Assembly: GCA_965242695.1 (NCBI GenBank)
Contig: CBDESU010000002.1
Coordinates: 736,001-800,000 of the forward strand
Source of the DNA: Cenarchaeum sp.
GTDB taxonomy: Archaea; Thermoproteota; Nitrososphaeria; Nitrososphaerales; Nitrosopumilaceae
DNA: 64,000 nucleotides
Direction: 5' to 3'
In this document: positions 24,636-62,154 of the stretch, piece by piece
Layout: each line of letters begins with the position of its first letter
Numbering within the stretch: position 1 is the first letter of the stretch
Made by a program: the position numbers and the translations under genes
Notes under the pieces: model-generated
Seen by the model: only the letters and a program-made list of their open reading frames with translations
What the model was told of the DNA's origin: nothing
Databases searched by the model: none

Positions 24636-25892
24636 CTATGCGGGCGCCCCCCTCCGGCGCCCCTTATTGCCCCTATTCCCGCCGCCGATCACGGCGTTCA
24701 GCATCTCGTGGACGGTGTTGGGGCCGGCGCGGACGCTGACCTGCATGCGCCGGGCCCCGGCCGCCATCTCCTCGGCGCGGGACAGGATGCCATGAACCGC
24801 CTTTGTCCCGTCCTTTCGAGCACTGGCGTCTGTCGTCGCCGCCGTAGCCGCCAGCCGGGCGGCTTCTTGGGCAAACCCCTCGAACCCGGCCGCCGCCGCG
24901 TTGGCGAATATCTCGTCCTCGAGCGCCCCGAGCGGGGCGTACGCGGCGATGCCCCTGCGGGCCAGCTCGCCTGCCGCCGCGTCGATTGCGGCCTGCGAGT
25001 CTACGACGGGCGAGACGGGCAGGACGGCCCGCTTGATCCCGCCTCCTTCGGCCATCTTTGCGGCCAGCAGGCACGAGGCGAGCAGGCGCACGGCGCGGCC
25101 GCCCGGCGCCTTTTTGATCCGGATGAACTCGATGCCTACCGGCTCTCCTCCGAGCAGGGATGCGGCGGTGCGCGGCACCAGCCTGCCGGCCGCCTTGGCA
25201 AGCCTCCGCAGCTCTGCCTCGGTCGAGTACGCCACGGACATGCGCACGTCGTACCCCTGCCTGATCGCCTCGAGGCATGCGGCCGCCGAGAGGCCGTCGA
25301 ACATGCAACATGCGACGGGCTCGGGGTGCGTGCCGGCTGGCACTCCACCCACCCCCCTGTCCGCAAACAGGCACGCGTACGAGTGCCTGGCCGTAACATA
25401 TGCGTACAGCTCGCGGTCGTGCCTTGCGGGCGTGCCCGGCTTGGCGCCGATGCCCGCATGCTTTTCGATAATCGACGAGGTTGCGGCCATCTCCAGATCG
25501 CCGGGAACGTACCCCCTTGGCCGCCCCTCGGCCTTCACCAGATACATCTCGCCCTCGAGCAGGATGCTCCCTGCCACCTGCGATACGGCCTCGGCGGCGT
25601 CCGCCAGCGTTGCGCCGGCCCGCCGCGCAATGCCGACCCTTTGTACGCCCGACAGCATGCCGACGGCCGCCGAGGCCAGTACGGGGTCCGCGGCCCCCTC
25701 CACTACGACGAGCGAGCCATCCCTAGCGATCGACTTGAACGGCTGGCCGGCCGACTTGAGAGCCGACCTGACGTTGCGAGCAAGCGACACCGTTTTTTTT
25801 TTGGCAAACACGGTGGGCACGGCTATTACAAAGAGTGAGCTACATGGTCCAGCCGACCAGCCATCGTTTTTTTCAGGCATCTGATTATCCAT
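24636..25892 (-). CDS. ThiI-like THUMP-domain protein with degenerate PP-loop
   Basis: SGVQRVGIA, THUMP-like middle, GVGGVPAG, then CCMFDGLS where SGGxDS is expected. Start uncertain. Confidence 0.65.
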   Translation of the reverse strand: MDNQMPEKNDGWSAGPCSSLFVIAVPTVFAKKKTVSLARNVRSALKSAGQPFKSIARDGSLVVVEGAADPVLASAAVGMLSGVQRVGIARRAGATLADAAEAVSQVAGSILLEGEMYLVKAEGRPRGYVPGDLEMAATSSIIEKHAGIGAKPGTPARHDRELYAYVTARHSYACLFADRGVGGVPAGTHPEPVACCMFDGLSAAACLEAIRQGYDVRMSVAYSTEAELRRLAKAAGRLVPRTAASLLGGEPVGIEFIRIKKAPGGRAVRLLASCLLAAKMAEGGGIKRAVLPVSPVVDSQAAIDAAAGELARRGIAAYAPLGALEDEIFANAAAAGFEGFAQEAARLAATAATTDASARKDGTKAVHGILSRAEEMAAGARRMQVSVRAGPNTVHEMLNAVIGGGNRGNKGRRRGAPA

Positions 25893-26111
25893 TTTCTACA
25901 CCTAACAAACTTTTTTCTGGTCAACATTGTTACTGGGCATTAGATTTTTGTACGTGACACCAGTAATATATCAAAGCGCAAAGATTTTGAACACTTTTTG
26001 TATTAGACATGTTACGCTTTAGAAGCACTTCATATTTATAATTATGATTGTGTCGGCAAACTACCTCGAGATTTAAAGTCACCCCTACCCTCTCCCACAA
26101 ACAACAAATAT

Positions 26112-27524
26112 TTATTTTTCTTTTTGCGTGTACACATCAATGATATATGGGATCGCCCTTACTATATCACTGTTGTTGATTATTTTAGATCGATATTTAC
26201 CATGCCCGCCTACCATGTTGATTTTTTTGCCATTTTTAATCATGTACTTAACAAAGCCCATATCATCTTCAGCCACATCCAGCTGTCCAGTAATATAGAT
26301 GACATTTAGTGATTTTTTAAGTACTTCTATCACGCAGAACAACCTGCCAGATGTCGATGAACGCCAACCGATATATCTCACCGTTGCCTTGATTTCGACT
26401 CCTGGAATATTTGTACCTAGCCTACCCCGCAGTTCTCTGTAAAGCGCCCGTGTTTCGTTAGATCCGTGTGTACTCAAGTAGCCTTCTTCACTATACTGCT
26501 CCAATGATCTCGATCCTAGATTCCTTCCGTGTCCATGCCTGTTACTAGCGTTTTTGTTCTCTCCGTCATGAACTTGTTTGACGTAGCGAATTGCTCTTGT
26601 CACGCCATCTTCATTTTCTATTTTAGATCTATAATGACCAGAACCACGACTGCCAATTTTCGTGCCGTCAGGCCTAACCATGTGTTGTACAAAAGATCTG
26701 TCTTTGTGTTCTATGATTAGGCGTTTCGTTGTATAGCTTAGCTCTAATGATTTTTTTCGTACTTCAACTGTACAAATTATCTTGTCATGCTCATTCACCA
26801 TATTAATGACATACTTCATTGATTTTATTTTTAAGTCTGGCATGTTTTTAGCGAGGTCTGCCTTAAGTTTATTATAGAGATTATGTGTTTCGGCAGAGGC
26901 TTTTTTCAAATGTGTATTCTCGGGGGTTGTTTTTTCAATGGGCAATACATCTTCTTGTTTTTGATGAGTAGCATCTTCTTGTTTTTGATGAGTAGCATCT
27001 TCTTGTTTTTGATGAGTAGCATCATTTAACGTCATGACGCCATTCTCGTACCTTATAATTTGATACAATTCTACTGGTTCACCCCCTCCCCTCGCTGCAG
27101 AAAGCTGGTGTTCAGTAAAAGATGGTGATATTATAATAGCCCTGCTTTTATCCCACGCAATATCATTTTTAGTAAAATTTTTACCGCGTTTTTCATGGTA
27201 TAGCTGTAGAAAGTCAGCTTTTCTCTCAGTCATCAGACTTAAATAGCTTTTTACTTGTTCTATTGCCCCCTGCATCTTATTTTTCTTATACTCGATAAGC
27301 ACAAAGGTCTTAGATTTTATGTTGAACGCAACGGTGTCTATTCTCTGATTTGCTATTACAAATTCACGCTTCACAAATTCATGGTCGGGGAATATCACGC
27401 TTAGGTTCTCCTCGATCAGATCCTGTATGGCCCTCTCATCGCCAAATCCGCCCTTCGTTTTCTTGATCTCTTCTAGGCTGCCTTCTGTTCCTTTGAAGAT
27501 CGCCCGGAATATTCTTGCCGCCAC
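26112..27524 (-). CDS. NucS/DUF91-like PD-(D/E)xK nuclease with two tandem DUF5655-like domains
   Basis: ERAIQDLIEENL...RIDTVAF...LIEYKK, then two similar ~120-aa domains each ending G.G.YRSKI. GTG 27524 lies about 25 nt from a TATA-like box. Confidence 0.7.
   Translation of the reverse strand: MAARIFRAIFKGTEGSLEEIKKTKGGFGDERAIQDLIEENLSVIFPDHEFVKREFVIANQRIDTVAFNIKSKTFVLIEYKKNKMQGAIEQVKSYLSLMTERKADFLQLYHEKRGKNFTKNDIAWDKSRAIIISPSFTEHQLSAARGGGEPVELYQIIRYENGVMTLNDATHQKQEDATHQKQEDATHQKQEDVLPIEKTTPENTHLKKASAETHNLYNKLKADLAKNMPDLKIKSMKYVINMVNEHDKIICTVEVRKKSLELSYTTKRLIIEHKDRSFVQHMVRPDGTKIGSRGSGHYRSKIENEDGVTRAIRYVKQVHDGENKNASNRHGHGRNLGSRSLEQYSEEGYLSTHGSNETRALYRELRGRLGTNIPGVEIKATVRYIGWRSSTSGRLFCVIEVLKKSLNVIYITGQLDVAEDDMGFVKYMIKNGKKINMVGGHGKYRSKIINNSDIVRAIPYIIDVYTQKEK
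26948..27023. repeat. 24-bp tandem repeat x3 (DATHQKQE linker)
   Basis: CATCTTCTTGTTTTTGATGAGTAG at 26948, 26972 and 26996. Confidence 0.95.
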
Positions 27525-27832
27525 GACTCCGCCCCGCCATGAGGCGTTAATATAGTTTGGTCTGACCTGATGGGCGTTGCTCGCTCTTTGGCGGTTAGGC
27601 ATGTCGCGTGGCACTGCCGCCTTGGTATGCCACACAAGTACCAGAGGGGCCTGATCGTGCTACCTAGCGGAACGCCACTGGCTTGCTCGGTTGTGGGCGC
27701 AGTCCCTCGTTGTAATGGTTATAAACCCCTGCTGTTTGCGCGCACTGACGAAATGCCTAAGCGAGGTCGCCGTGCACTTGTTGGCCTTGTTTCAAACGTC
27801 CTGGATTACCTAACAGTATCGGGAGGATCAAA

Positions 27833-29239
27833 ATGCCCAATTTAGGAAAGGACACACTGCGAAAACAGAGCCTTCGACGCAGCGCCAACGTCCGCGTACC
27901 TCTTAAAACCACTGCCGAGGCAAACAGTGACTGGACATTTCGAGACATAAGCACTCAAAAGTATACCCATGGCATACATCTGTACCCTGCTAGGATGCAT
28001 CCAGAAATTGCTCGGCGTGTTATTTCCAAATATGCCCATCCATCTGATGTAGTATTTGATCCATTTATGGGGTCGGGTGGGGTCCTCCTTGAATCAATTT
28101 TGCATGGTAATAACGCAGTAGGGCTAGACATAAATCCGCTGGCAGTTCTTATATCTAAAGTTAAGACAACAATTTTTAAAAATAACAAAATTTCGTTAAT
28201 ACCAAAGTTTCTGGAAACAATTTTATCAGACAGTAACCACGCATTTAAACGGGGGGGGGGGGGGAGACAATGGGATAATCAACCAAATTTATTATGCTCT
28301 AATAACTTGTATCCAAGTGAATACGATACAACTGGATGGTTTGATACTCATACATTGATCCGTCTTGGTCTATTAAAACGAAGTATGATCAAAGTTACTG
28401 ACGATGACATTTTAAATTTTTTTAAGATCTGTTTTTCGTTAACAGTTAGAAAATCTAGCTGGCAACGCAGTGGTTCATGGAAAATTCATAGAATTCCAGA
28501 ATTGGATCGTTGTGGAGCCAGTCCTGATCCATTTGCTATTTTTAACAATGTATGTAACGCTAATATTAAAAAAATCAAAAATTTGGCTATGATGCATCCC
28601 GTCGGACGAGCGTATCCTCTGCTCGGAAACACCAAAGAAGTTGACCTGAATTTTAAACGCGTAACACATATACTTCAAGACAAAAAAGCAAACCTCGTCG
28701 TCACGTCACCTCCATATGGAGACCACAAAACAACGGTTGCATACGGGCAATTTTCGCGCCATTTGAGTCACTGGCTAGATCTTCCCGTTGATGAAGTTCG
28801 AACCGTTGACAGTATGGGATTAGGTGGGAAAAATTATAAAACAAATAATGATCTTGAATCGCCAGCTTTAGGCCACACACTCACTAAGATACAAAAAAAT
28901 GATGTTAAACTGACAAAAAACAAAAAACCATGCAGGGACCGTGAAGTTTATGCATACTTTTATGACCTTGATCAATGTTTGGAACAGATTTCTCAATGTC
29001 TCGTGACCGGCAAAAGTCATGCATGTTTTGTTGTGGCCAACCGAACCGTCAGGCGCATCACTATCCCTACCGACACAATATTGATTGAACTTGGACGCAA
29101 GTACGGATTTGTCGTCAAAAACACAATGCAACGACAGATTCCAAACAAGCGAATGCCAATCCGTAATGCTCCCGAAAACATAACAAATGCGGTTGGCAAA
29201 ACGATGACCCAAGAGTCTATTATTATTATGAGGTGTTAA
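27833..29239 (+). CDS. N4-cytosine DNA methyltransferase, alpha class, M.MvaI-like
   Basis: THGIHLYPARM, motif I DPFMGSG before motif IV TSPPY, VVANRTV; adjacent to an MvaI/BcnI-type REase. Confidence 0.88.
   Translation: MPNLGKDTLRKQSLRRSANVRVPLKTTAEANSDWTFRDISTQKYTHGIHLYPARMHPEIARRVISKYAHPSDVVFDPFMGSGGVLLESILHGNNAVGLDINPLAVLISKVKTTIFKNNKISLIPKFLETILSDSNHAFKRGGGGRQWDNQPNLLCSNNLYPSEYDTTGWFDTHTLIRLGLLKRSMIKVTDDDILNFFKICFSLTVRKSSWQRSGSWKIHRIPELDRCGASPDPFAIFNNVCNANIKKIKNLAMMHPVGRAYPLLGNTKEVDLNFKRVTHILQDKKANLVVTSPPYGDHKTTVAYGQFSRHLSHWLDLPVDEVRTVDSMGLGGKNYKTNNDLESPALGHTLTKIQKNDVKLTKNKKPCRDREVYAYFYDLDQCLEQISQCLVTGKSHACFVVANRTVRRITIPTDTILIELGRKYGFVVKNTMQRQIPNKRMPIRNAPENITNAVGKTMTQESIIIMRC
28251..28264 (+). 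repeat. G14 homopolymer within the methyltransferase ORF
   Basis: aaacGGGGGGGGGGGGGGagac, in frame as KRGGGGR. Confidence 0.9.
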
Positions 29240-29241
29240 AG

Positions 29242-29952
29242 ATGCAAGAATATGCACAATTAGTTGACCAGTTGCCTTATATTGAAGCAATGGGATATGT
29301 TCGTACACATCGCAGTGGCGATACCGGCGTGGGTAAAACACTAGAAGATCTTTTGCACATACGAGAGAACAATTTTGCGGGACCCAATGGTCATATGACA
29401 GAGTTAAAATCTGGCCGAAAAAATGCAACAGGGATGCTTACTTTATTTACAAAGTCTCCTCTACCACGTAAGATCAATAGGCAGTTAGTTGAAAAATTTG
29501 GAACACGTGATCAAAACGGTAGATTAAAATTACATACGACGATAAACGCTCTTTCTAGAAATACGTTGTATGGCAATTCCGGTTTTATTATAAAAGTGAT
29601 GCAAGCTACGATTGTTTTAGATCATCCTCAATATGCAGATTTGCCTGTTCCATATTGGAATCGAGATGATCTCGAGAAAGCTTTTACCAAAAAATACCCC
29701 CAAAATTTATTATATGTTAAAGCTGACCACAAGGGACATGGCATCGACGAAGAATTTCACTATAATGAGGCGTGGCTTATGTCTGGATTTAGCTTTAGTC
29801 GCTTTATTGATCTACTGATGAGCCGACAAATTTTGGTCGACATTAGACTAGGTCGTCACCCTGACGGTAGGCTACATGACCATGGAACAGGCTTCCGTGT
29901 CACTAAGAGCAATTTAGATTTGTGCTTTGAGCATAGAAAGCAAGTCCTTTGA
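29242..29952 (+). CDS. MvaI/BcnI family restriction endonuclease, possibly inactive (PD changed to PN)
   Basis: GDTGVGKTLEDLL..ENN...PNGHMTELK, LTLFTKSP, HDHGTGFR. GAGGTG Shine-Dalgarno before ATG 29242 (alternative GTG 29233). Confidence 0.88.
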   Translation: MQEYAQLVDQLPYIEAMGYVRTHRSGDTGVGKTLEDLLHIRENNFAGPNGHMTELKSGRKNATGMLTLFTKSPLPRKINRQLVEKFGTRDQNGRLKLHTTINALSRNTLYGNSGFIIKVMQATIVLDHPQYADLPVPYWNRDDLEKAFTKKYPQNLLYVKADHKGHGIDEEFHYNEAWLMSGFSFSRFIDLLMSRQILVDIRLGRHPDGRLHDHGTGFRVTKSNLDLCFEHRKQVL

Positions 29953-30040
29953 TTGCCAACTTTTAGCGCGCCCCTGAGCGGCGTGCTTGCTTTTAGGATG
30001 GTTCATAATAGTTATAACCTGCACATGTGGCGCCGGCTCG

Positions 30041-30790
30041 TTGGCAGGGCTCACGCAGGCGCAGGTCGACGGCCTCAACTCGACCATCCGCACCGCCGAC
30101 GAGGCCCTGCGGTGGGCCTCGGACAACCTCCACCCCCGGGTGGCCAAGGCGTCGAGCTTTGGGGCCGAGGATGCGGCCGTCACGGACATGATGGTGCAGA
30201 TCAACCCAAGGTTCAGGTTCTTCACGCTCGACACGGGTCGCCTGCCAAAGGAGACGTACGAGGCCATGGACGCCGTCCGCAAGAGGTACGGCATAGACCT
30301 AGAGGTGCTGTTCCCCGACGCGACAGAGGTCGAGGAGATGGTCCGCACCAAGGGCGTCAACCTGTTCTACGACAGCGTAGAGAACCGCCGGCTGTGCTGC
30401 GCCGTGCGCAAGGTCCACCCGACGGCCCGCATCCTCAAGACGCTCGACGGCTGGATAACCGGGTTGCGGCGCGACCAGACGCCCGACCGCGCCGACGCCC
30501 GCATGTTCGAGCTCGACGAGTCGCGCGGCGGTCTGCTCAAGATCAACCCCATCATAGACTGGTCGCTGGAGCGGGTTTGGGATTATATTAGGAGCCGCGG
30601 GGTTCCCTACAACAAGTTGCTCGACGAGGGATACCCCAGCATTGGCTGCGCGCCGTGCACGCGCGCAGTAAAGCCCGGCGAGGATACGAGGGCCGGCCGG
30701 TGGTGGTGGGAGCAGGACGACCACAAGGAGTGCGGCCTGCACGTGGGGCCGGCCGGGCAACTCGAGCGCGGGGGCGAGGGCAGTGGCTGA
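30041..30790 (+). CDS. cysH: adenylyl-sulfate/phosphoadenylyl-sulfate reductase (Fe-S, APS type)
   Basis: [46 protein letters not shown] start inferred from TTATAA at about 30012. Confidence 0.93.
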
Positions 30791-56023: not shown

Positions 56024-56037
56024 GGGGGGGGGGGGGG
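56024..56037 (+). repeat. G14 homopolymer upstream of the island operon
   Basis: ctaacGGGGGGGGGGGGGGcaaaa, about 125 nt before the first gene. Confidence 0.9.
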
Positions 56038-56160
56038 CAAAAATTGGAGCGTCACTGTTAGCAACATGTTAAACACCCAACACAGCCATACCGACACCAC
56101 TATAGTTACAACCCACAATGTCTGTGTCGTGGCCGAACTTTTCGATCGGGAGTGGTTGCC

Positions 56161-57987
56161 ATGCTTCTGAAGTGGACATTTCCGCCCACGGGTGGGGGTG
56201 TTGCACACGGTTTTAACGATAGTGCACAAGAGCACTTTAGAAATGACGCATGGAAGCATACCATACGAGAGCTAATTCAGAACTCTCTTGATGCTGTTCG
56301 CAACAAGGGCCAGCCAGTTGTTGTTGAGATATCGCTAATTGACGTGCCGTCAATCGAACTAGGTGCACTCGACCTTGCTAAACATGTAAAAGAAGCATTA
56401 AAACGAGCTAAAAAACAGGGCGAGAAACACGGCGAAAAATTCTATACTGATGCATTAAAGATTTTGAAAAGAAAGAAAATTAAAACACTAGCAGTAAAAG
56501 ATGCAAACACCACGGGTCTTATTGATGGAAAATGGAGTGCCCTAGTATTCAGCGAAGGGGCCACTGATAAAGGTGGCATGAGTGCAGCCGGCGGGAGTTT
56601 TGGAATAGGTAAAAGCGCCCCCTATTTAGTGTCTGAACTTAAAACTGTATGTTACTCTACGTACTACGCCCGGCCTGGAAGAGAGGAACGATTTATTGCG
56701 CGCTGCAAGCTAATCGCACACAATGATCCACAGGGACGAGACGGTGAGCTTCAACACATTGGATTCGGTACGAAAGGAAGAGTCCAGCGTAACAAACGCC
56801 CGCACCCCACACGAGGTCAAAACATCTACAGTGACTTTCGACTTGGTGGTATTGGCAGTGGCATATTTATCGCTGGATTTAATCCATTATCAAAAGATTG
56901 GCTAAAGGTTGCCGAAAAATCCATTGCAGAGAGCTTTTTTGAGGCAATACATACAGAAAAGTTAAGCATAAAGTTAGATGGTCAATTAATAACACGCGAT
57001 ACGCTTGATGAAATTTTTGATCAAGATCCAGATAACGATTCGTCGTACTACTACCATGTAATCCGAGGCGATCCCAATGTAAAAACTGAATATATCAAGA
57101 CGGACTTAGGGGAGTTTACTCTAAAGTTCTATATCGGGCAAGATGGAATGCCAAACCGAATTGCTTATGTCAACAGGAGGGGCATGCTAGTTACAGACAC
57201 AAGACAGCGTAATAAAAATCCCTTTCACAAAGCAGTAGGTCGAGGCTGGGCCAAGTACGTGGCAGTTGTCACGGCTTCAAATGATGAAACAGATACAAAA
57301 ATACGTGAAATGGAGCCTCCCAACCACGGTACAATTGAACCCGGCCGCATCATTGATCCTGTTAGGCGTGACGAAATGGAAGCAGCACTGGCCAGTATAA
57401 GGGAGAAAATTGCTACGGTAATAGGTGATGCACTGCGGCTTAGCATCCAAGACCAAGAGATTAACGTATCTGAACTCGCAGGGATCATACCAATTGATGG
57501 GGACAACAGTGATGGTAAGGACGAAGAAAGTCAAAACGACGAAGTCGAGCTTAAGGTTCGAAAGCTCAAAGCACCAACACCTGGAGAGAGCTATACTGAG
57601 CAGAAAGGTCCAAGTAAAGGTCGGGGATCAACCGGTAAAAAGCGTGGCAAAAAACGTGAACAGAAAGAAGAACGTACCGGGGCACTTAATAAAATACGTA
57701 TAATGCGCATCGATGACAAGATGCGAGTGGCATTTACACCCACAGCATCTATGGAAGATATTCGCTTTTTGATTAGGCCCGCAGGTGAAGAGCGAATGCG
57801 AGAGCATGCTATTACGATTAGTAAGGCTAGAGCATTACACAGCAACACTTCTGTTCGTGCAGACGGCAAAACCGTGATCGTCTCTCCTCAAAATACAGAT
57901 AGGATAACAATGGATCTTACAGTGGGTAAGGCTAAAGCATACACAGGATATGAAATAGCCTGTGTTTCTCAGGAGGAGCAAAAATGA
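56161..57987 (+). CDS. GHKL (HATPase/MORC-like) ATPase
   Basis: RELIQNSLDA (N box), VKDANTTGL (G1), GGSFGIGK (G2), EPPNH. GGGAG before ATG 56161 (alternative GTG 56152). Confidence 0.82.
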   Translation: MLLKWTFPPTGGGVAHGFNDSAQEHFRNDAWKHTIRELIQNSLDAVRNKGQPVVVEISLIDVPSIELGALDLAKHVKEALKRAKKQGEKHGEKFYTDALKILKRKKIKTLAVKDANTTGLIDGKWSALVFSEGATDKGGMSAAGGSFGIGKSAPYLVSELKTVCYSTYYARPGREERFIARCKLIAHNDPQGRDGELQHIGFGTKGRVQRNKRPHPTRGQNIYSDFRLGGIGSGIFIAGFNPLSKDWLKVAEKSIAESFFEAIHTEKLSIKLDGQLITRDTLDEIFDQDPDNDSSYYYHVIRGDPNVKTEYIKTDLGEFTLKFYIGQDGMPNRIAYVNRRGMLVTDTRQRNKNPFHKAVGRGWAKYVAVVTASNDETDTKIREMEPPNHGTIEPGRIIDPVRRDEMEAALASIREKIATVIGDALRLSIQDQEINVSELAGIIPIDGDNSDGKDEESQNDEVELKVRKLKAPTPGESYTEQKGPSKGRGSTGKKRGKKREQKEERTGALNKIRIMRIDDKMRVAFTPTASMEDIRFLIRPAGEERMREHAITISKARALHSNTSVRADGKTVIVSPQNTDRITMDLTVGKAKAYTGYEIACVSQEEQK

Positions 57988-58823
57988 CCCGCGATAAGCT
58001 CCTCCTGCCTCATCCGGTGCTACGACCGGGCGGCGGACTGGATTACAACGAAAGCTGCAATTTTGGGCTGGAAATAAAGCCTGGAGCCTCTAGACGTACA
58101 TCGGAAGGGGTCGTAGAAATTAAAGCATCATTCACGCTTGTTAGCCCTACTTTAGAAGAGATGGTAAAGGAGGGCAAGGCTCAGTACCTTGTATTGGCGA
58201 CATGCGCAAAAACATACTATCGACTTGCAACATCTTTTGATGTCCAACAAATATTGCTAGAATTTCCTGTTAAAAATTTGGCTGGTACTCTTCGATTAAC
58301 ACCTTATATTGTAACAACTAAAGAAATAGAGTGGTTTATTGCACCAGAACACGATCCTGAAATAAAAATATTTCAAGGATTTGGCAAGATCCCGCCAGGA
58401 TCAATACTTGCCATAGGTGCCCCGCACGAAATTGAAATGGAACAAATTGGGACTGTTATGTCTGCAATAAAACTGGTTCCAAACGCAAACATTATGGAAG
58501 GGCGTTACACAATAAACGATGAAGGTGATTTTATAATGATTGAACTAAATAATAAAACATACACAGATATTGCACGCATGAGGACCCACATAAAAAATCT
58601 ACTCTACCCTTCTATCTATCAGGCAGCTATTGAGTATGCCCTACGTAAAGCTACTGAAGAAGCAGATAGTAAGTGGGCCAAAGCTTTACAAAAAACGCTA
58701 GAAGAACATGGTCTTAGTAACGATAATATTGAAGAAAAAGCGAATGAATACGCCCAAATAATAATGGGGGACCCGTTAGGGCAAATGCTCGAATGGTGCA
58801 ACAGGAGTGTTTCATTTGACTGA
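57984..58823 (+). CDS. hypothetical protein, partner of the GHKL ATPase
   Basis: 279 aa; PHPVL N-terminus, PGSILA; ATGA overlap and AGGAGG Shine-Dalgarno. Confidence 0.8.
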   Translation: MTRDKLLLPHPVLRPGGGLDYNESCNFGLEIKPGASRRTSEGVVEIKASFTLVSPTLEEMVKEGKAQYLVLATCAKTYYRLATSFDVQQILLEFPVKNLAGTLRLTPYIVTTKEIEWFIAPEHDPEIKIFQGFGKIPPGSILAIGAPHEIEMEQIGTVMSAIKLVPNANIMEGRYTINDEGDFIMIELNNKTYTDIARMRTHIKNLLYPSIYQAAIEYALRKATEEADSKWAKALQKTLEEHGLSNDNIEEKANEYAQIIMGDPLGQMLEWCNRSVSFD

Positions 58824-60513
58824 CACCATACGGCTACATAGGCTCACCGGTGATGCATTTGTGAGTTTGCGTAACTATGCGAGCAACCACCCTGATGCTT
58901 ATTGTGACCCTAATGCCGACTTTGGGAAGATTCTTGAATCATGTTGTGATAAAAGCTATTCAAACCCTGTAAACATTACCCTAGATTCTGCCCTGTCCCT
59001 AAAGGAACCACTAGAATATAGTAAAAGCAATGCCAAACGTCATCTTGCAGACAAACAAGCTTTAGATTTCTATAAATCTTTGAAGGGCATGACGCCCAGA
59101 CTGGCCTCTGATCCTTATATTTTAGCCTACATAAACCACTTTTATCTTCATAAATATGGTATCCAGAGATGGCCTATAAGTAAAGAAAAACAGGCGCCAG
59201 CCACTGAGCAAGCGGCACCTACATCGACTAGTGCGCCATTAGGACTGAGCAAGAGAGCATCTCACATTCGGCTACACTGGTTGACCTCTAGTAACCAGCG
59301 TCAACAGATATGGAATGCCAGTATTGCTGGCCGTACATGGTGGATTGCACATGTAGCGATTAAAGCGGCTGATGCTTCAGGAGGGGCCTTTACAGCTAAA
59401 GATGCGTTGGATCTTTTTGCGGAGACGCCCGAGTATTACCACAGAACAATGGAGTATGTAGTTCTCAGGAATCCAGTTCTCCTAGCAGAGTGTGTCCGCG
59501 CACTAATGAATGAAGCTCGTGGGATTAATCGCAGTGGATATAGAGAAATGGGAATGGAACTAAACCGTGAAGCCGGCGCGCGAGTGCTTGATTCACTTAA
59601 CCGAAACGACCTACGAAGGCTTGTTCATCGATCTGCCGATCGTCTTATGCGCATGAAAGACTACGTAAACGATCGCCATCACCTCGTTGGTGTCGACAAG
59701 TTCAATGTACTTAGCCTCGGGGCAGGCGCACAATCGACGGTGCTTGCACTCATGGCAGAGGAGGGGTGGGAAGGCTTAGAAAAACCCGATCTCGCGATAT
59801 TCGCTGATACGCAATGGGAACCACGTGCGGTGTATGATCACCTAAAATGGCTTAAGAGCCAATTGTCCTATGAGGTAGTTACGGTTACGGCCGGTGACAT
59901 AAAAGACAACATGCTTCACGGCGTCAACCCTGATGGTGACAAGTTCCTTGACGTACCGGTATTCTTACGCAATGCGGACGGAACTAAGTCCGTGGCAGCT
60001 AGGCAATGCACCACTCACTACAAAATAATACCCATACACAAAGAAATCCGAAAAAGACTTAAAATCCCTGCTGGCAAGCGTGTTCCTAAAGACGTCCAAG
60101 TCGTGATGTGGTTAGGAATAAGCGCAGACGAGTCAACTAGAATGAAGCCTAGCAGGGATGAATGGATAGACAACCGATACCCGCTAGTTGAGATGAGCAT
60201 GACTCGAGCCGATATATACAAGTGGTTTGGAGATCGCTACCCTGATCGACATCTACCCCGCAGTGCTTGCGTGGGTTGCCCGTACCACGACGATATGGAG
60301 TGGAAATGGATCAAGGACAACGAACCCGAGTCATTCAAGGATGCTGTGAACATTGATTGGTCTTTGCGCAATGTGCCTGCCGCACGTGGTTCACTACGCG
60401 GGGAGGCATACCTACACAAGTCGAGAATGCCGCTAAGTGACATTGACTTTTCGCAAACTCGTGACTATGATGACTACATGGCAACTGAATGTGAGGGGTT
60501 GTGCGGTGTCTAA
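58807..60513 (+). CDS. DUF6339-like domain fused to a PAPS-reductase-like (PP-loop) Cys-rich domain
   Basis: N-half: ASDPYILAYINH...RW...GRTWW...LNREAGARVLDSL. C-half: LSLGAGAQST, FADTQWE, RQCTTHYKIIPI, GISADESTR, SACVGCPYH, ECEGLCGV. Confidence 0.75.
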   Translation: MFHLTDTIRLHRLTGDAFVSLRNYASNHPDAYCDPNADFGKILESCCDKSYSNPVNITLDSALSLKEPLEYSKSNAKRHLADKQALDFYKSLKGMTPRLASDPYILAYINHFYLHKYGIQRWPISKEKQAPATEQAAPTSTSAPLGLSKRASHIRLHWLTSSNQRQQIWNASIAGRTWWIAHVAIKAADASGGAFTAKDALDLFAETPEYYHRTMEYVVLRNPVLLAECVRALMNEARGINRSGYREMGMELNREAGARVLDSLNRNDLRRLVHRSADRLMRMKDYVNDRHHLVGVDKFNVLSLGAGAQSTVLALMAEEGWEGLEKPDLAIFADTQWEPRAVYDHLKWLKSQLSYEVVTVTAGDIKDNMLHGVNPDGDKFLDVPVFLRNADGTKSVAARQCTTHYKIIPIHKEIRKRLKIPAGKRVPKDVQVVMWLGISADESTRMKPSRDEWIDNRYPLVEMSMTRADIYKWFGDRYPDRHLPRSACVGCPYHDDMEWKWIKDNEPESFKDAVNIDWSLRNVPAARGSLRGEAYLHKSRMPLSDIDFSQTRDYDDYMATECEGLCGV

Positions 60514-60847
60514 TCTGACAAATTTTCTCACGAGAGATTTTATGTCGTTTGGCCATGGTTGCCACGAGGTGATTGATCCTGGGCCGGGATTGTATGCAAT
60601 GTGGTTGCGCGGCCAGTGCATATACGTGGGAATGAGCGAGGATCTTCACAGACGCATTTTTCAGCATGTGGCCTCCGAGGACAACCAGGATCTTGCCAAT
60701 TATTACCGACAATTTCCTGGCGAGATTCGAATAGCTATCGTGCACGTGGATGCCAAAGCAGATCAACTCCGTCGACTTGAGTCTGAGGCCATTGAAAAAC
60801 TCCGACCTATCGTTAACAAGCGTGGTGGAGGTGGCACACGGCAATGA
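60506..60847 (+). CDS. minimal GIY-YIG nuclease
   Basis: GLYAMW...IYVGMS..LHRRIFQH...ESEAIEKLRPIVN; GTG overlaps the upstream stop. Confidence 0.82.
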   Translation: MSNLTNFLTRDFMSFGHGCHEVIDPGPGLYAMWLRGQCIYVGMSEDLHRRIFQHVASEDNQDLANYYRQFPGEIRIAIVHVDAKADQLRRLESEAIEKLRPIVNKRGGGGTRQ

Positions 60848-62154
60848 CCAGCTGTCATCCTGCACTTCGAGGAAAATTCGGGAAAACAGAATATTTTTTG
60901 ACCGTTATGCCGGTAGGCGATCTGGTAAACCGCGTGAAATTTCCTGTTGAGATGCCGGAATGGAAAGAGTATACTATCGAAGAACGCTACCAGCGTAGCC
61001 TTAATATGAAACGCATTATAGAAGAAATGGCCCCGTACTTTGCTCAAGACGATAACCGGTTCACGGGTTCGTTAGTCTTGGCCGTCCAAAATGATGAAAA
61101 CATGGAGTTTGAGCACCTGTCTAAGCTAACGGGAGACTTGGGCGCACTTCCTACCATGTACAAGAGTGCTTCGTCCGAAATGGGGTTTGTTGTCATGTCT
61201 GGGCAAGAAGTACTAGTTCCACTAGATGGGCAGCACCGTGCCAAGGCGTTCAAGATGGCTATTGAAGGCCACGCCCGAAACGATCGTGAACCTCCCGTGA
61301 TACTACCCAACGTAAGTTTTGCTCGCGATATGGTGGCGGTAATACTTGTGCGTTTTGACAAAAAGCTATCACGATACATATTTAACAAGATTAATCGCTA
61401 TGCTAAACCAACCGTCAAGGGGGACAAACTAATCACCGATGACGATGACGCAGTTGCAGTCATGACTCGGGCTCTGATAAGAGACGGTGTGATCCCTGCT
61501 AGGCTAGTCAAGGTTAGCGGTAATACACTCAACCTACGTGCGATCGAATTTACAACACTATCTACTTTCTACGAAGCGAATAAAAAACTCGTCTCAGCAT
61601 TGCCGATTCCTCTTGCGGACAAGCCAGAAAAAATGAATTTAGGTGAACGAGAAAAACGCCTTAAGGAGCTTCAAATTGAGTGGAGGCGTCTATTGTCTGG
61701 TGTCACAGAATGGAAAAGAGCACTTACCGCCTCTGATCAAGGTGGAGACGCGACGCGGATCAAGTTGCGTGAAATTTCCTTGCTTGCCAGGCCCGTTGGG
61801 CAGGCAGCCTTAATTAATGGCTATACATTGGCATGTATGAAAGACAGAACTCGTGCAGACAAAGATGAGCTGGTGGCAAGGATCAATAAGATAGATTGGG
61901 GTGTCAAAGCAGAGCTGTGGAAGGGTTTGCTGGTAGGTCCAAATAACAAAATATTCTCTAGCATGCCTGCAGCTAGGAACGCAGGCTTGATGACTGCACA
62001 CATGATCGGTATCGCATTGACCCGTAAGGAAAAGGAACGCGTCATAAAATTTGTCTACGGTAATGCTTCTATGAACCGCAATTTGCCCAAGCCTATAGCA
62101 CTTTCCCGCTACGAACTAGACGAACATAAGCAACAAGCAAGGGATGGTCTATAA
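60844..62154 (+). CDS. dndB: DGQHR-domain / DndB-family protein
   Basis: YQRSLNMKRI, RFTGSLVLA, PLDGQHRAKA, IFNKINRYAKPT; GGAGGTG Shine-Dalgarno and ATGA overlap. Confidence 0.88.
   Translation: MTSCHPALRGKFGKTEYFLTVMPVGDLVNRVKFPVEMPEWKEYTIEERYQRSLNMKRIIEEMAPYFAQDDNRFTGSLVLAVQNDENMEFEHLSKLTGDLGALPTMYKSASSEMGFVVMSGQEVLVPLDGQHRAKAFKMAIEGHARNDREPPVILPNVSFARDMVAVILVRFDKKLSRYIFNKINRYAKPTVKGDKLITDDDDAVAVMTRALIRDGVIPARLVKVSGNTLNLRAIEFTTLSTFYEANKKLVSALPIPLADKPEKMNLGEREKRLKELQIEWRRLLSGVTEWKRALTASDQGGDATRIKLREISLLARPVGQAALINGYTLACMKDRTRADKDELVARINKIDWGVKAELWKGLLVGPNNKIFSSMPAARNAGLMTAHMIGIALTRKEKERVIKFVYGNASMNRNLPKPIALSRYELDEHKQQARDGL

Follow-up and report, generated by a model that had tools for sequence, protein, structure and literature searches.

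The homopolymer of 14 G residues (G14) at positions 28251..28264 (+ strand) of the 64,000 nucleotide (nt) window, that is, the whole stretch of DNA analysed here, lies in frame within a Type II DNA methylase gene. It is probably a contingency tract prone to slippage, located in the methylase gene of a Type II restriction–modification (R-M) cassette of the MvaI family, which is carried on a strain-variable, low-GC defence island of a Nitrosopumilaceae-kind ammonia-oxidising archaeon. The evidence comes from the reading frame across the tract, from the state of the tract site in relatives and from the kinds of genes in which other intragenic tracts of the same genome are found.

The tract and its reading frame

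On the + strand, positions 28250–28265 read as one C, 14 G (28251–28264) and one A. The CGG codon of R140 occupies 28250–28252 and residues G141–G144 extend to 28264; the tract therefore encodes part of R140 plus G141–G144. The open reading frame (ORF) of 468 amino acids (aa), at 27833..29239 (+), reads ...AFKRGGGGRQWDN... across it. With one extra G the frame reads ETMG and meets a TAA stop after 4 codons; with one G fewer it reads G-DNGIINQ...LILIH and meets a TGA 30 codons on. Both stops fall upstream of the catalytic motif TSPPY (28703–28717), and a one-G change removes everything past aa 144, TSPPY included. The preliminary description of this DNA had claimed an in-frame G14 within an intact methylase ORF, with G15 leading to TAA at 4 codons and G13 to TGA at about 30 codons, both before TSPPY; the count of 14 G, the 468-aa ORF and the frame translations bear out each of these statements.

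Six G12 matches were observed in the window, all from its two G14 tracts, against a mean of 0.08 expected from 100 dinucleotide shuffles, and a chance origin of the tract is excluded. The tract thus has the simple-sequence character of a contingency locus: it is slip-prone, within an ORF and over-represented.

The methylase and its endonuclease partner

The N-terminal part of the methylase (aa 23–107) matches Pfam N6_N4_Mtase (E 5.3e-14), and aa 31–467 match PADLOC MTase_II (E 1.3e-104); 5555 homologues were found in a protein search. Upstream of the tract lies the S-adenosylmethionine (AdoMet)-binding motif DPFMGSGG (aa 76–83; 28058..28081, +), of which D76, P77, F78, G80, S81 and G82 are invariant across an alignment of 48 homologues. 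Downstream lies TSPPY (aa 291–295; 28703..28717, +), of which S292, P293, P294 and Y295 are invariant in both homologue alignments. The order of FxGxG, variable region and TSPPY is that of the alpha type, with the tract (aa 140–144) between the two motifs. The AlphaFold model (AF2; 48-sequence alignment) has a predicted local distance difference test score (pLDDT) of 82 and a predicted template modelling score (pTM) of 0.84. A Foldseek structure search of the PDB with this model returned only generic methyltransferase matches (Dam, Trm11; template modelling score at most 0.32 by query), and a PDB sequence search with the methylase gave weak matches only.

A gene for a restriction endonuclease of the MvaI/BcnI family, 236 aa in length, starts with ATG at 29242, 2 nt past the methylase stop, and ends at 29952 (+). 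Its product matches Pfam MvaI_BcnI (PF15515) at full length (profile positions 3–227 of 227, E 1.2e-45), and is closer to R.MvaI (2oa9; E 7.5e-27) than to R.BcnI (E 4.9e-07). Nine of the ten best endonuclease homologue clusters are likewise 236 aa and full length, and the endonuclease appears to be maintained. A full-length endonuclease and an adjoining amino-methylase with AdoMet-binding and PPY motifs together point to an MvaI/BcnI-type Type II R-M system.

The methylase is probably an N4-cytosine methylase. N4-methylcytosine (m4C) and a CCWGG-like site are reasonable expectations, because the endonuclease is closer to R.MvaI and the methylase carries SPPY. The preliminary label of 'm4C methyltransferase' is thus a fair one, given the N6_N4_Mtase and MTase_II matches, the SPPY motif and the adjoining MvaI_BcnI endonuclease, and should be read as a prediction. 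The observed/expected frequencies of CCWGG and CCSGG (0.85 each) are uninformative, those of control words being similar.

The glycine run as an insertion

The tract is held in a 12-residue insertion (RGGGGRQWDNQP; 28250..28285, +) in an alignment of 11 full-length sequences. Only the window protein and its closest full-length homologue, P0002 (74 % identity, with KAGGGAQ at this place) have residues in the 12-column stretch; the other nine, homologues at 50–60 % identity, have a gap. The preliminary description had asked whether the Gly run is an insertion relative to homologous methylases, and by this alignment it is. The best orthologues in the genomes of 60 relatives (49–57 % identity) are all without the insertion. 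In the model, G141–G144 form a coil right after a helix (117–140), with local pLDDT of 66–68. Whole-codon changes in the length of the Gly run should be tolerated, because these residues are placed in a lower-confidence coil inside a lineage-specific insertion.

Length and frame state in relatives

Among close homologues, full read-through was seen only in the window protein and P0002. Five others are C-terminal-only ORFs of 284–315 aa, namely P0003 (91 % identity), P0009 (83 %), P0023 (72 %), P0101 (68 %) and P0102 (67 %); that of P0023 starts 8 residues after the tract site and that of P0003 about 14 after. A second protein search, with methylase aa 1–175 as the query, gave N-terminal fragments. 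All nine of the best (P0121–P0129, 62–81 % identity) end 1–25 residues past the Gly run at the aligned site, and their Gly runs of 2–5 residues correspond to roughly 7–17 nt. In P0121 the tail (DNGIFNQTY) resembles the −1 frame of the window itself (DNGIINQIYY), and the break in P0121 therefore sits at the tract. In all, 11 distinct relatives retain the Gly run at this site, mostly out of frame. As judged from protein predictions, repeat length thus appears to vary among relatives and to change the frame.

P0122 (an N-terminal piece), P0009 (a C-terminal piece) and P0182 (an intact 236-aa endonuclease, 92 % identity) each come from a 4897-nt contig; likewise, P0129 and P0101 both come from 3459-nt contigs. 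These equal contig sizes, which are the sole basis for placing the pieces together, suggest that N-terminal piece, C-terminal piece and endonuclease are collinear. No DNA of close relatives was found by protein search or by a degenerate peptide pattern in the genome and metagenome contig collections.

A genome of the same genus, G002, has an orthologue at 54 % identity with an intact endonuclease. This orthologue is without the insertion and has G11 and G13 runs inside an N-terminal extension, which would represent an independent gain of tracts at a different place. The Type III mod gene of G002 has a G13 run after a similar leader. These two methylases (MvaI-type, L005:1330–1440; Type III mod, L025:1446–1500) are unrelated, yet both start with the leader MTAARRP followed by poly-G, and their leader regions are 76 % identical over about 110 nt, TATA-like box included. 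Leader and tract look like a portable start-plus-tract module. A genome search for the MTAARRP leader in the window's own genome gave only chance matches.

Poly-G tracts across the genome

The genome, of two contigs (C1 and C2), contains 252 G/C runs of at least 9 nt, the longest of 34 nt, and 13 runs are of at least 20 nt. Numbers by length are 46 (8 nt), 29 (9 nt), 53 (10 nt), 54 (11 nt) and 47 (12 nt), with a second mode at 10–13 nt. Because the numbers drop as far as 9 nt and then rise at 10–12 nt, the long runs are a distinct class. Windows of G11 number 464 in G002, 552 in a second large congener, G004, and about 554 in the present genome (the last by arithmetic from run counts), against 12–33 in three smaller relatives.

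The runs are also oriented. A two-half strand pattern is followed by 198 of the 223 runs of at least 10 nt. On C1 there are 64 G and 5 C runs within 0–1.0 Mb, and 70 C and 10 G runs beyond; on C2 there are 17 C runs and 1 G run within 0–0.5 Mb, and 47 G and 9 C runs beyond. The flip on C2, at about 0.55–0.7 Mb, is beside orc1/cdc6 (701 kb) and an extreme of GC skew (680 kb). Cumulative GC skew is weak, with extremes at 770 kb and 2.19 Mb on C1 and at 680 kb and 1.38 Mb on C2, and it matches the flip only at C2. The G runs would lie on the nascent leading strand.

Eleven runs are intragenic in the sense of having at least 100 open codons on both sides, and all were inspected. Seven of the eleven are in DNA-methylase or R-M genes (Types II, IIG, ISP and III), four of them in frame and three shifted. 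Those in frame are the G14 of the window methylase, a G22 (22 nt) in a Type III mod gene (L016, 880 aa), an 11 nt run in a Type ISP enzyme (L020, 1679 aa) and a 10 nt run in an MmeI-like Type IIG enzyme (L018, 1030 aa). Of those shifted, an N6_N4 methylase (L021) is split exactly at a G10 tract (profile positions 2–36 and 40–221), a Type ISP gene (L017) is split at G13 into 320 and 1273 aa (PADLOC profile positions 4–311 and 319–1636), and an MmeI-like Type IIG gene (L019) is split at G12, its downstream piece matching the C-terminus of L018 (E 3e-45). The remaining four are in a ResIII/DEAD helicase, a GT2 glycosyltransferase, a giant NHL/Ig-like surface protein and an unknown gene. Intragenic tracts are thus concentrated in R-M, surface and glycosylation genes. 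Their gene spectrum is that of bacterial contingency loci, which argues against a random fallout of the intergenic class.

The whole genome gave 22 hits for PF01555, spread over 21 places, and 22 for PF02384; several of these enzymes are large and of IIG/ISP type. Of the PF01555 hits, 10 of 22 have a tract no more than 1.5 kb away, compared with 20 % of random segments; only 3 of the 22 PF02384 hits are so placed. The genome thus has a very large set of DNA methylases, and three methylase paralogues are found at C1:228–236 kb.

Two further features of the tracts were seen. A G13 run at C1:868157 (L015:2258–2270), in a region of 50 % GC, splits a frame into 594 and 440 aa; neither half matches Pfam or PADLOC, and the gene is a large unknown one. 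At no fewer than four loci (C1:135658, 150343, 266171 and 828696), a TATA-like TAAATA(A/G)AT box is followed directly by a G12–G18 run and a conserved CGCCAACGGAGC stretch, with a second run of G10–G13 about 100 nt downstream, which makes up a repeated promoter-like element with two tracts. A strict regular-expression search for this element returned 1 copy, the pattern being too strict.

Public contigs over the locus

Public data over the locus consist of Logan contigs assembled from the short reads of four runs, with an index word of 31 letters. In run X2, at a depth of about 410–440, some contigs stop at 28264 and others start at 28251; in run X4 the corresponding positions are 28262 and 28252. 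The pieces listed for X5 do not cover 28166–28297. None of the listed contigs bridges the tract, and the T10 run at 25793–25802 is bridged in both X2 and X4. A 14-nt run is shorter than the 31-letter index word, and the break may for that reason be read as a branch, with more than one length among the reads. Sequencing slippage could give rise to such a branch too, and the break is consistent with length variation but not decisive.

The cassette itself is variable. A contig of X4, at depth 89, joins position 27170 to 30050 and so lacks 27171..30049, and in this run the island has a depth of 57–91 compared with 477–741 for the flanks. The junction and the low island depth indicate co-occurring strains without the R-M cassette. 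The same junction contig has other sequence in place of 25785–27056, and is only about 80 % alike over 27057–27170.

Proposed mechanism and its difficulties

In the mechanism proposed here, slipped-strand mispairing at replication would alter the run length at high frequency. The change would toggle the methylase between a full-length form and one truncated between the AdoMet-binding motif and TSPPY. Translation of the endonuclease would probably fall with that of the methylase, as its gene starts 2 nt past the methylase stop in the same operon, and the whole R-M system would then be switched. The outcome would be a symbiont population mixed in defence and methylation state.

Several points weigh against this reading, and they are set out here together with the alternatives that draw on them. 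The first concerns the pair of genes. Loss of the methylase alone, with the endonuclease still active, should expose the genome to cutting and be harmful; if the reading holds, the cassette would pose the problem of how methylase and endonuclease, as two separate genes of a Type II system, could be switched without self-killing. Of three ways out, the favoured one is that the endonuclease is translationally coupled to the methylase and both fall, in which case the classical dilution problem remains. Alternatively, transcriptional slippage or assembly of the two halves may retain some methylase activity, or the switch may be a costly one that is tolerated in a large population.

The second group of points concerns the tracts as a class. 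The tract may be a by-product of a genome-wide, replication-oriented poly-G process that landed in a tolerant loop, with the frame breaks in relatives representing decay of a selfish R-M cassette. This is considered unlikely. In its favour, 225 of the 252 runs lie in predicted intergenic DNA, an approximate figure given a crude gene call (codon usage only, 79 % coding) that misses low-GC islands. The strand orientation of 198 of the 223 longer runs, with its flip near the single orc1/cdc6 gene, points to a genome-wide mutational or replication-linked process that could place tracts without selected function, and the large congeners G002 and G004 are likewise tract-rich. Only 2 of the 11 relatives are in frame, no better than the one-third expected of random lengths, and the cassette is absent from a co-occurring strain; the methylase gene may simply be decaying. 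However, R-M or methylase genes hold seven of the eleven intragenic tracts, and among the other four are kinds of gene that typify contingency loci in bacteria. The tract has also stayed at one site in orthologues down to about 62–68 % identity, where an unselected homopolymer should have gained substitutions. Additionally, the G002 orthologue gained its tracts at another site, and the endonuclease homologues remain full length.

A third difficulty is that long G runs may cause transcriptional slippage, which would blur the distinction between ON and OFF. RNA polymerase slippage on long homopolymers is established in bacteria. Expression could be independent of the genomic frame, if slippage brings some of the mRNAs back into frame or if the two halves assemble, and the tract would then tune the level of methylase instead of switching it. 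The intact endonuclease P0182 beside a split methylase (P0122 and P0009) would be hard to survive with the methylase off, and the protein is interrupted in a loop that separates the AdoMet-binding part from the remainder. However, this co-location is deduced from contig sizes alone, and frame-independent expression is considered quite improbable.

The last points concern the length of the tract as recorded. The frame states of relatives are gene calls on the assemblies of others, in which homopolymer length is error-prone, and for some N-terminal fragments the end may be that of the contig and not a stop codon. The contig break at the G14 could stem from slippage in sequencing or in the polymerase chain reaction as well as from real mixtures, and no contig reads through the tract with a different length. 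That all genomes in truth have a fixed, in-frame tract, with the frames and breaks of relatives arising as homopolymer errors, is highly improbable: G runs of 12–17 are prone to error, the two deep runs (X2 and X4) both show contig breaks at the tract and the window's assembly has a single consensus length, but the Gly runs of relatives vary between 2 and 5 residues (some 7–17 nt), far beyond a 1-nt error, at least nine distinct sequences are out of frame, and in the very same assembly three other R-M genes are split exactly at tracts while four are not.

A contingency tract in the methylase gene remains the preferred reading. An extension of it is put forward more tentatively, as a possibility that falls short of being probable: large-genome, high-GC ammonia-oxidising archaea (the present genome and at least two congeners) might run a contingency system like those of bacterial pathogens, with hundreds of replication-oriented poly-G tracts and at least seven stochastically switched R-M or methylase genes, with the Type II pair switched as a unit by translational coupling. 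If so, phase-variable methylases, and possibly phasevarions, would be recorded for the first time in archaea, and each host would carry a mixed methylome and defence repertoire. An uncultured archaeal symbiont would then be using a bacterial bet-hedging solution genome-wide. Defence heterogeneity, virus–host dynamics and possibly epigenetic regulation in symbiotic archaea would become testable from long-read metagenomes.

Comparison with known systems

In host-adapted bacteria, phase variation of R-M systems by slippage is a textbook form of bet-hedging. Cj0031 of Campylobacter jejuni is a poly-G phase-variable Type IIG R-M enzyme, with a run of about 9–14 nt. The likeness lies in a poly-G run within an R-M gene, and in a genome with many tracts in R-M, glycosyltransferase and surface genes. 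Unlike in the window, endonuclease and methylase form one polypeptide in a Type IIG enzyme, and the closer analogues in the present genome are the MmeI-like genes L018 (in frame) and L019 (shifted). The present genome also differs in that its 252 tracts are mostly intergenic and strand-oriented by chromosome half.

M.MvaI, the methylase of the MvaI system, is an N4-cytosine methylase of CCWGG. The window cassette resembles that system (R.MvaI, 2oa9/2oaa) in its full-length endonuclease match and in a partner amino-methylase with SPPY, and the thaumarchaeal homologue P0130 carries the UniRef name 'Modification methylase MvaI'. The poly-G insertion sets it apart, being absent from 9 of the 11 aligned full-length family members; CCWGG and m4C are here predicted from sequence.

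The phasevarion Type III mod genes of Haemophilus and Neisseria (Srikhanta/Atack/Jennings), as cited in passages of PMC12707154 and PMC5909438, have a repeat inside the methylase ORF, slippage of which shifts the frame and truncates the enzyme, as it would in the window methylase. Host association, plausible for the present archaeon, would be a further likeness, and the present genome also has a Type III mod gene with an in-frame G22. The differences are that the window gene is a Type II methylase with a separate endonuclease, so that OFF is not automatically harmless, that the repeat is in an inserted loop mid-gene and not at the 5′ end, and that the system is archaeal and known from genes alone. 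In the parts of a 2025 review that bear on the subject (PMC12707154), phasevarions are tied to Type I and III systems, a further point against a switch of the present kind. A phasevarion, in which the state of the methylase governs a regulon, also presupposes that loss of the methylase is tolerated, either because restriction needs the Mod or HsdM subunit or because the methylase is an orphan. The window gene is neither an orphan nor a Type III mod, and has a separate, full-length MvaI-family endonuclease 2 nt downstream. The earlier proposal of a candidate phasevarion is therefore upheld in part: a conserved and apparently length-variable repeat in a methylase stands, with six more R-M or methylase genes bearing tracts, while the gene itself belongs to a Type II pair in which methylase and endonuclease are separate proteins.

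No archaeal phase-variable methylase is described in the full-text literature searched. In the portions of PMC10609329 and PMC13076061 that treat phase-variable systems, these are mentioned for bacteria only, and the word 'archaea' is absent from PMC5909438 and PMC7383803, which survey phase-variable systems of Types I and III across REBASE. A passage of a preprint (10.1101/2025.10.21.683753) refers in passing to past studies of contingency loci in archaea.

Genome setting and defence islands

The genome is of 3.89 Mb in two contigs, at 67–68 % GC. The 16S sequence scores 1450.5 bits with the archaeal model and 1085.6 with the bacterial one, and the genome has an archaeal amoA and one orc1/cdc6 gene (C2:701 kb), all of which confirm the archaeal origin assumed in the preliminary description. 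Relatives at the family level mostly have genomes of 1–2 Mb, and the named homologues of the R-M pair are from a Cenarchaeum sponge symbiont and from Nitrososphaeria. According to the part of PMC7848895 that concerns these organisms, 7 of 11 sponge-associated Thaumarchaeota have 47–67 % GC, and R-M domains are enriched. Candidate symbiont status is plausible by comparison of the 67 % GC with that report and with the 1–2 Mb relatives.

The R-M pair lies on a 4-kb island of 38–47 % GC within DNA of about 68 % GC. The second G14 tract of the window (56024..56037, +) marks the 5′ edge of another island of low GC and precedes the first ORF there by about 115 nt. This island (56152..62154, +) contains a DndB-like gene and, by PADLOC, PDC-M33 A, B and C, the last of which is SspD-like in part. 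Each of the two long G tracts of the window thus lies at a defence island. Rfam and tRNA scans of the 64-kb window were empty.

The divergent neighbour of the methylase gene is a candidate defence gene by PADLOC, PDC-S18 (DUF5655/NucS-like; 26112..27635, −). It contains a three-copy peptide repeat, ATHQKQED, at about 26880–27030, the copy number of which may be variable; public contigs also break there (26970–27023).

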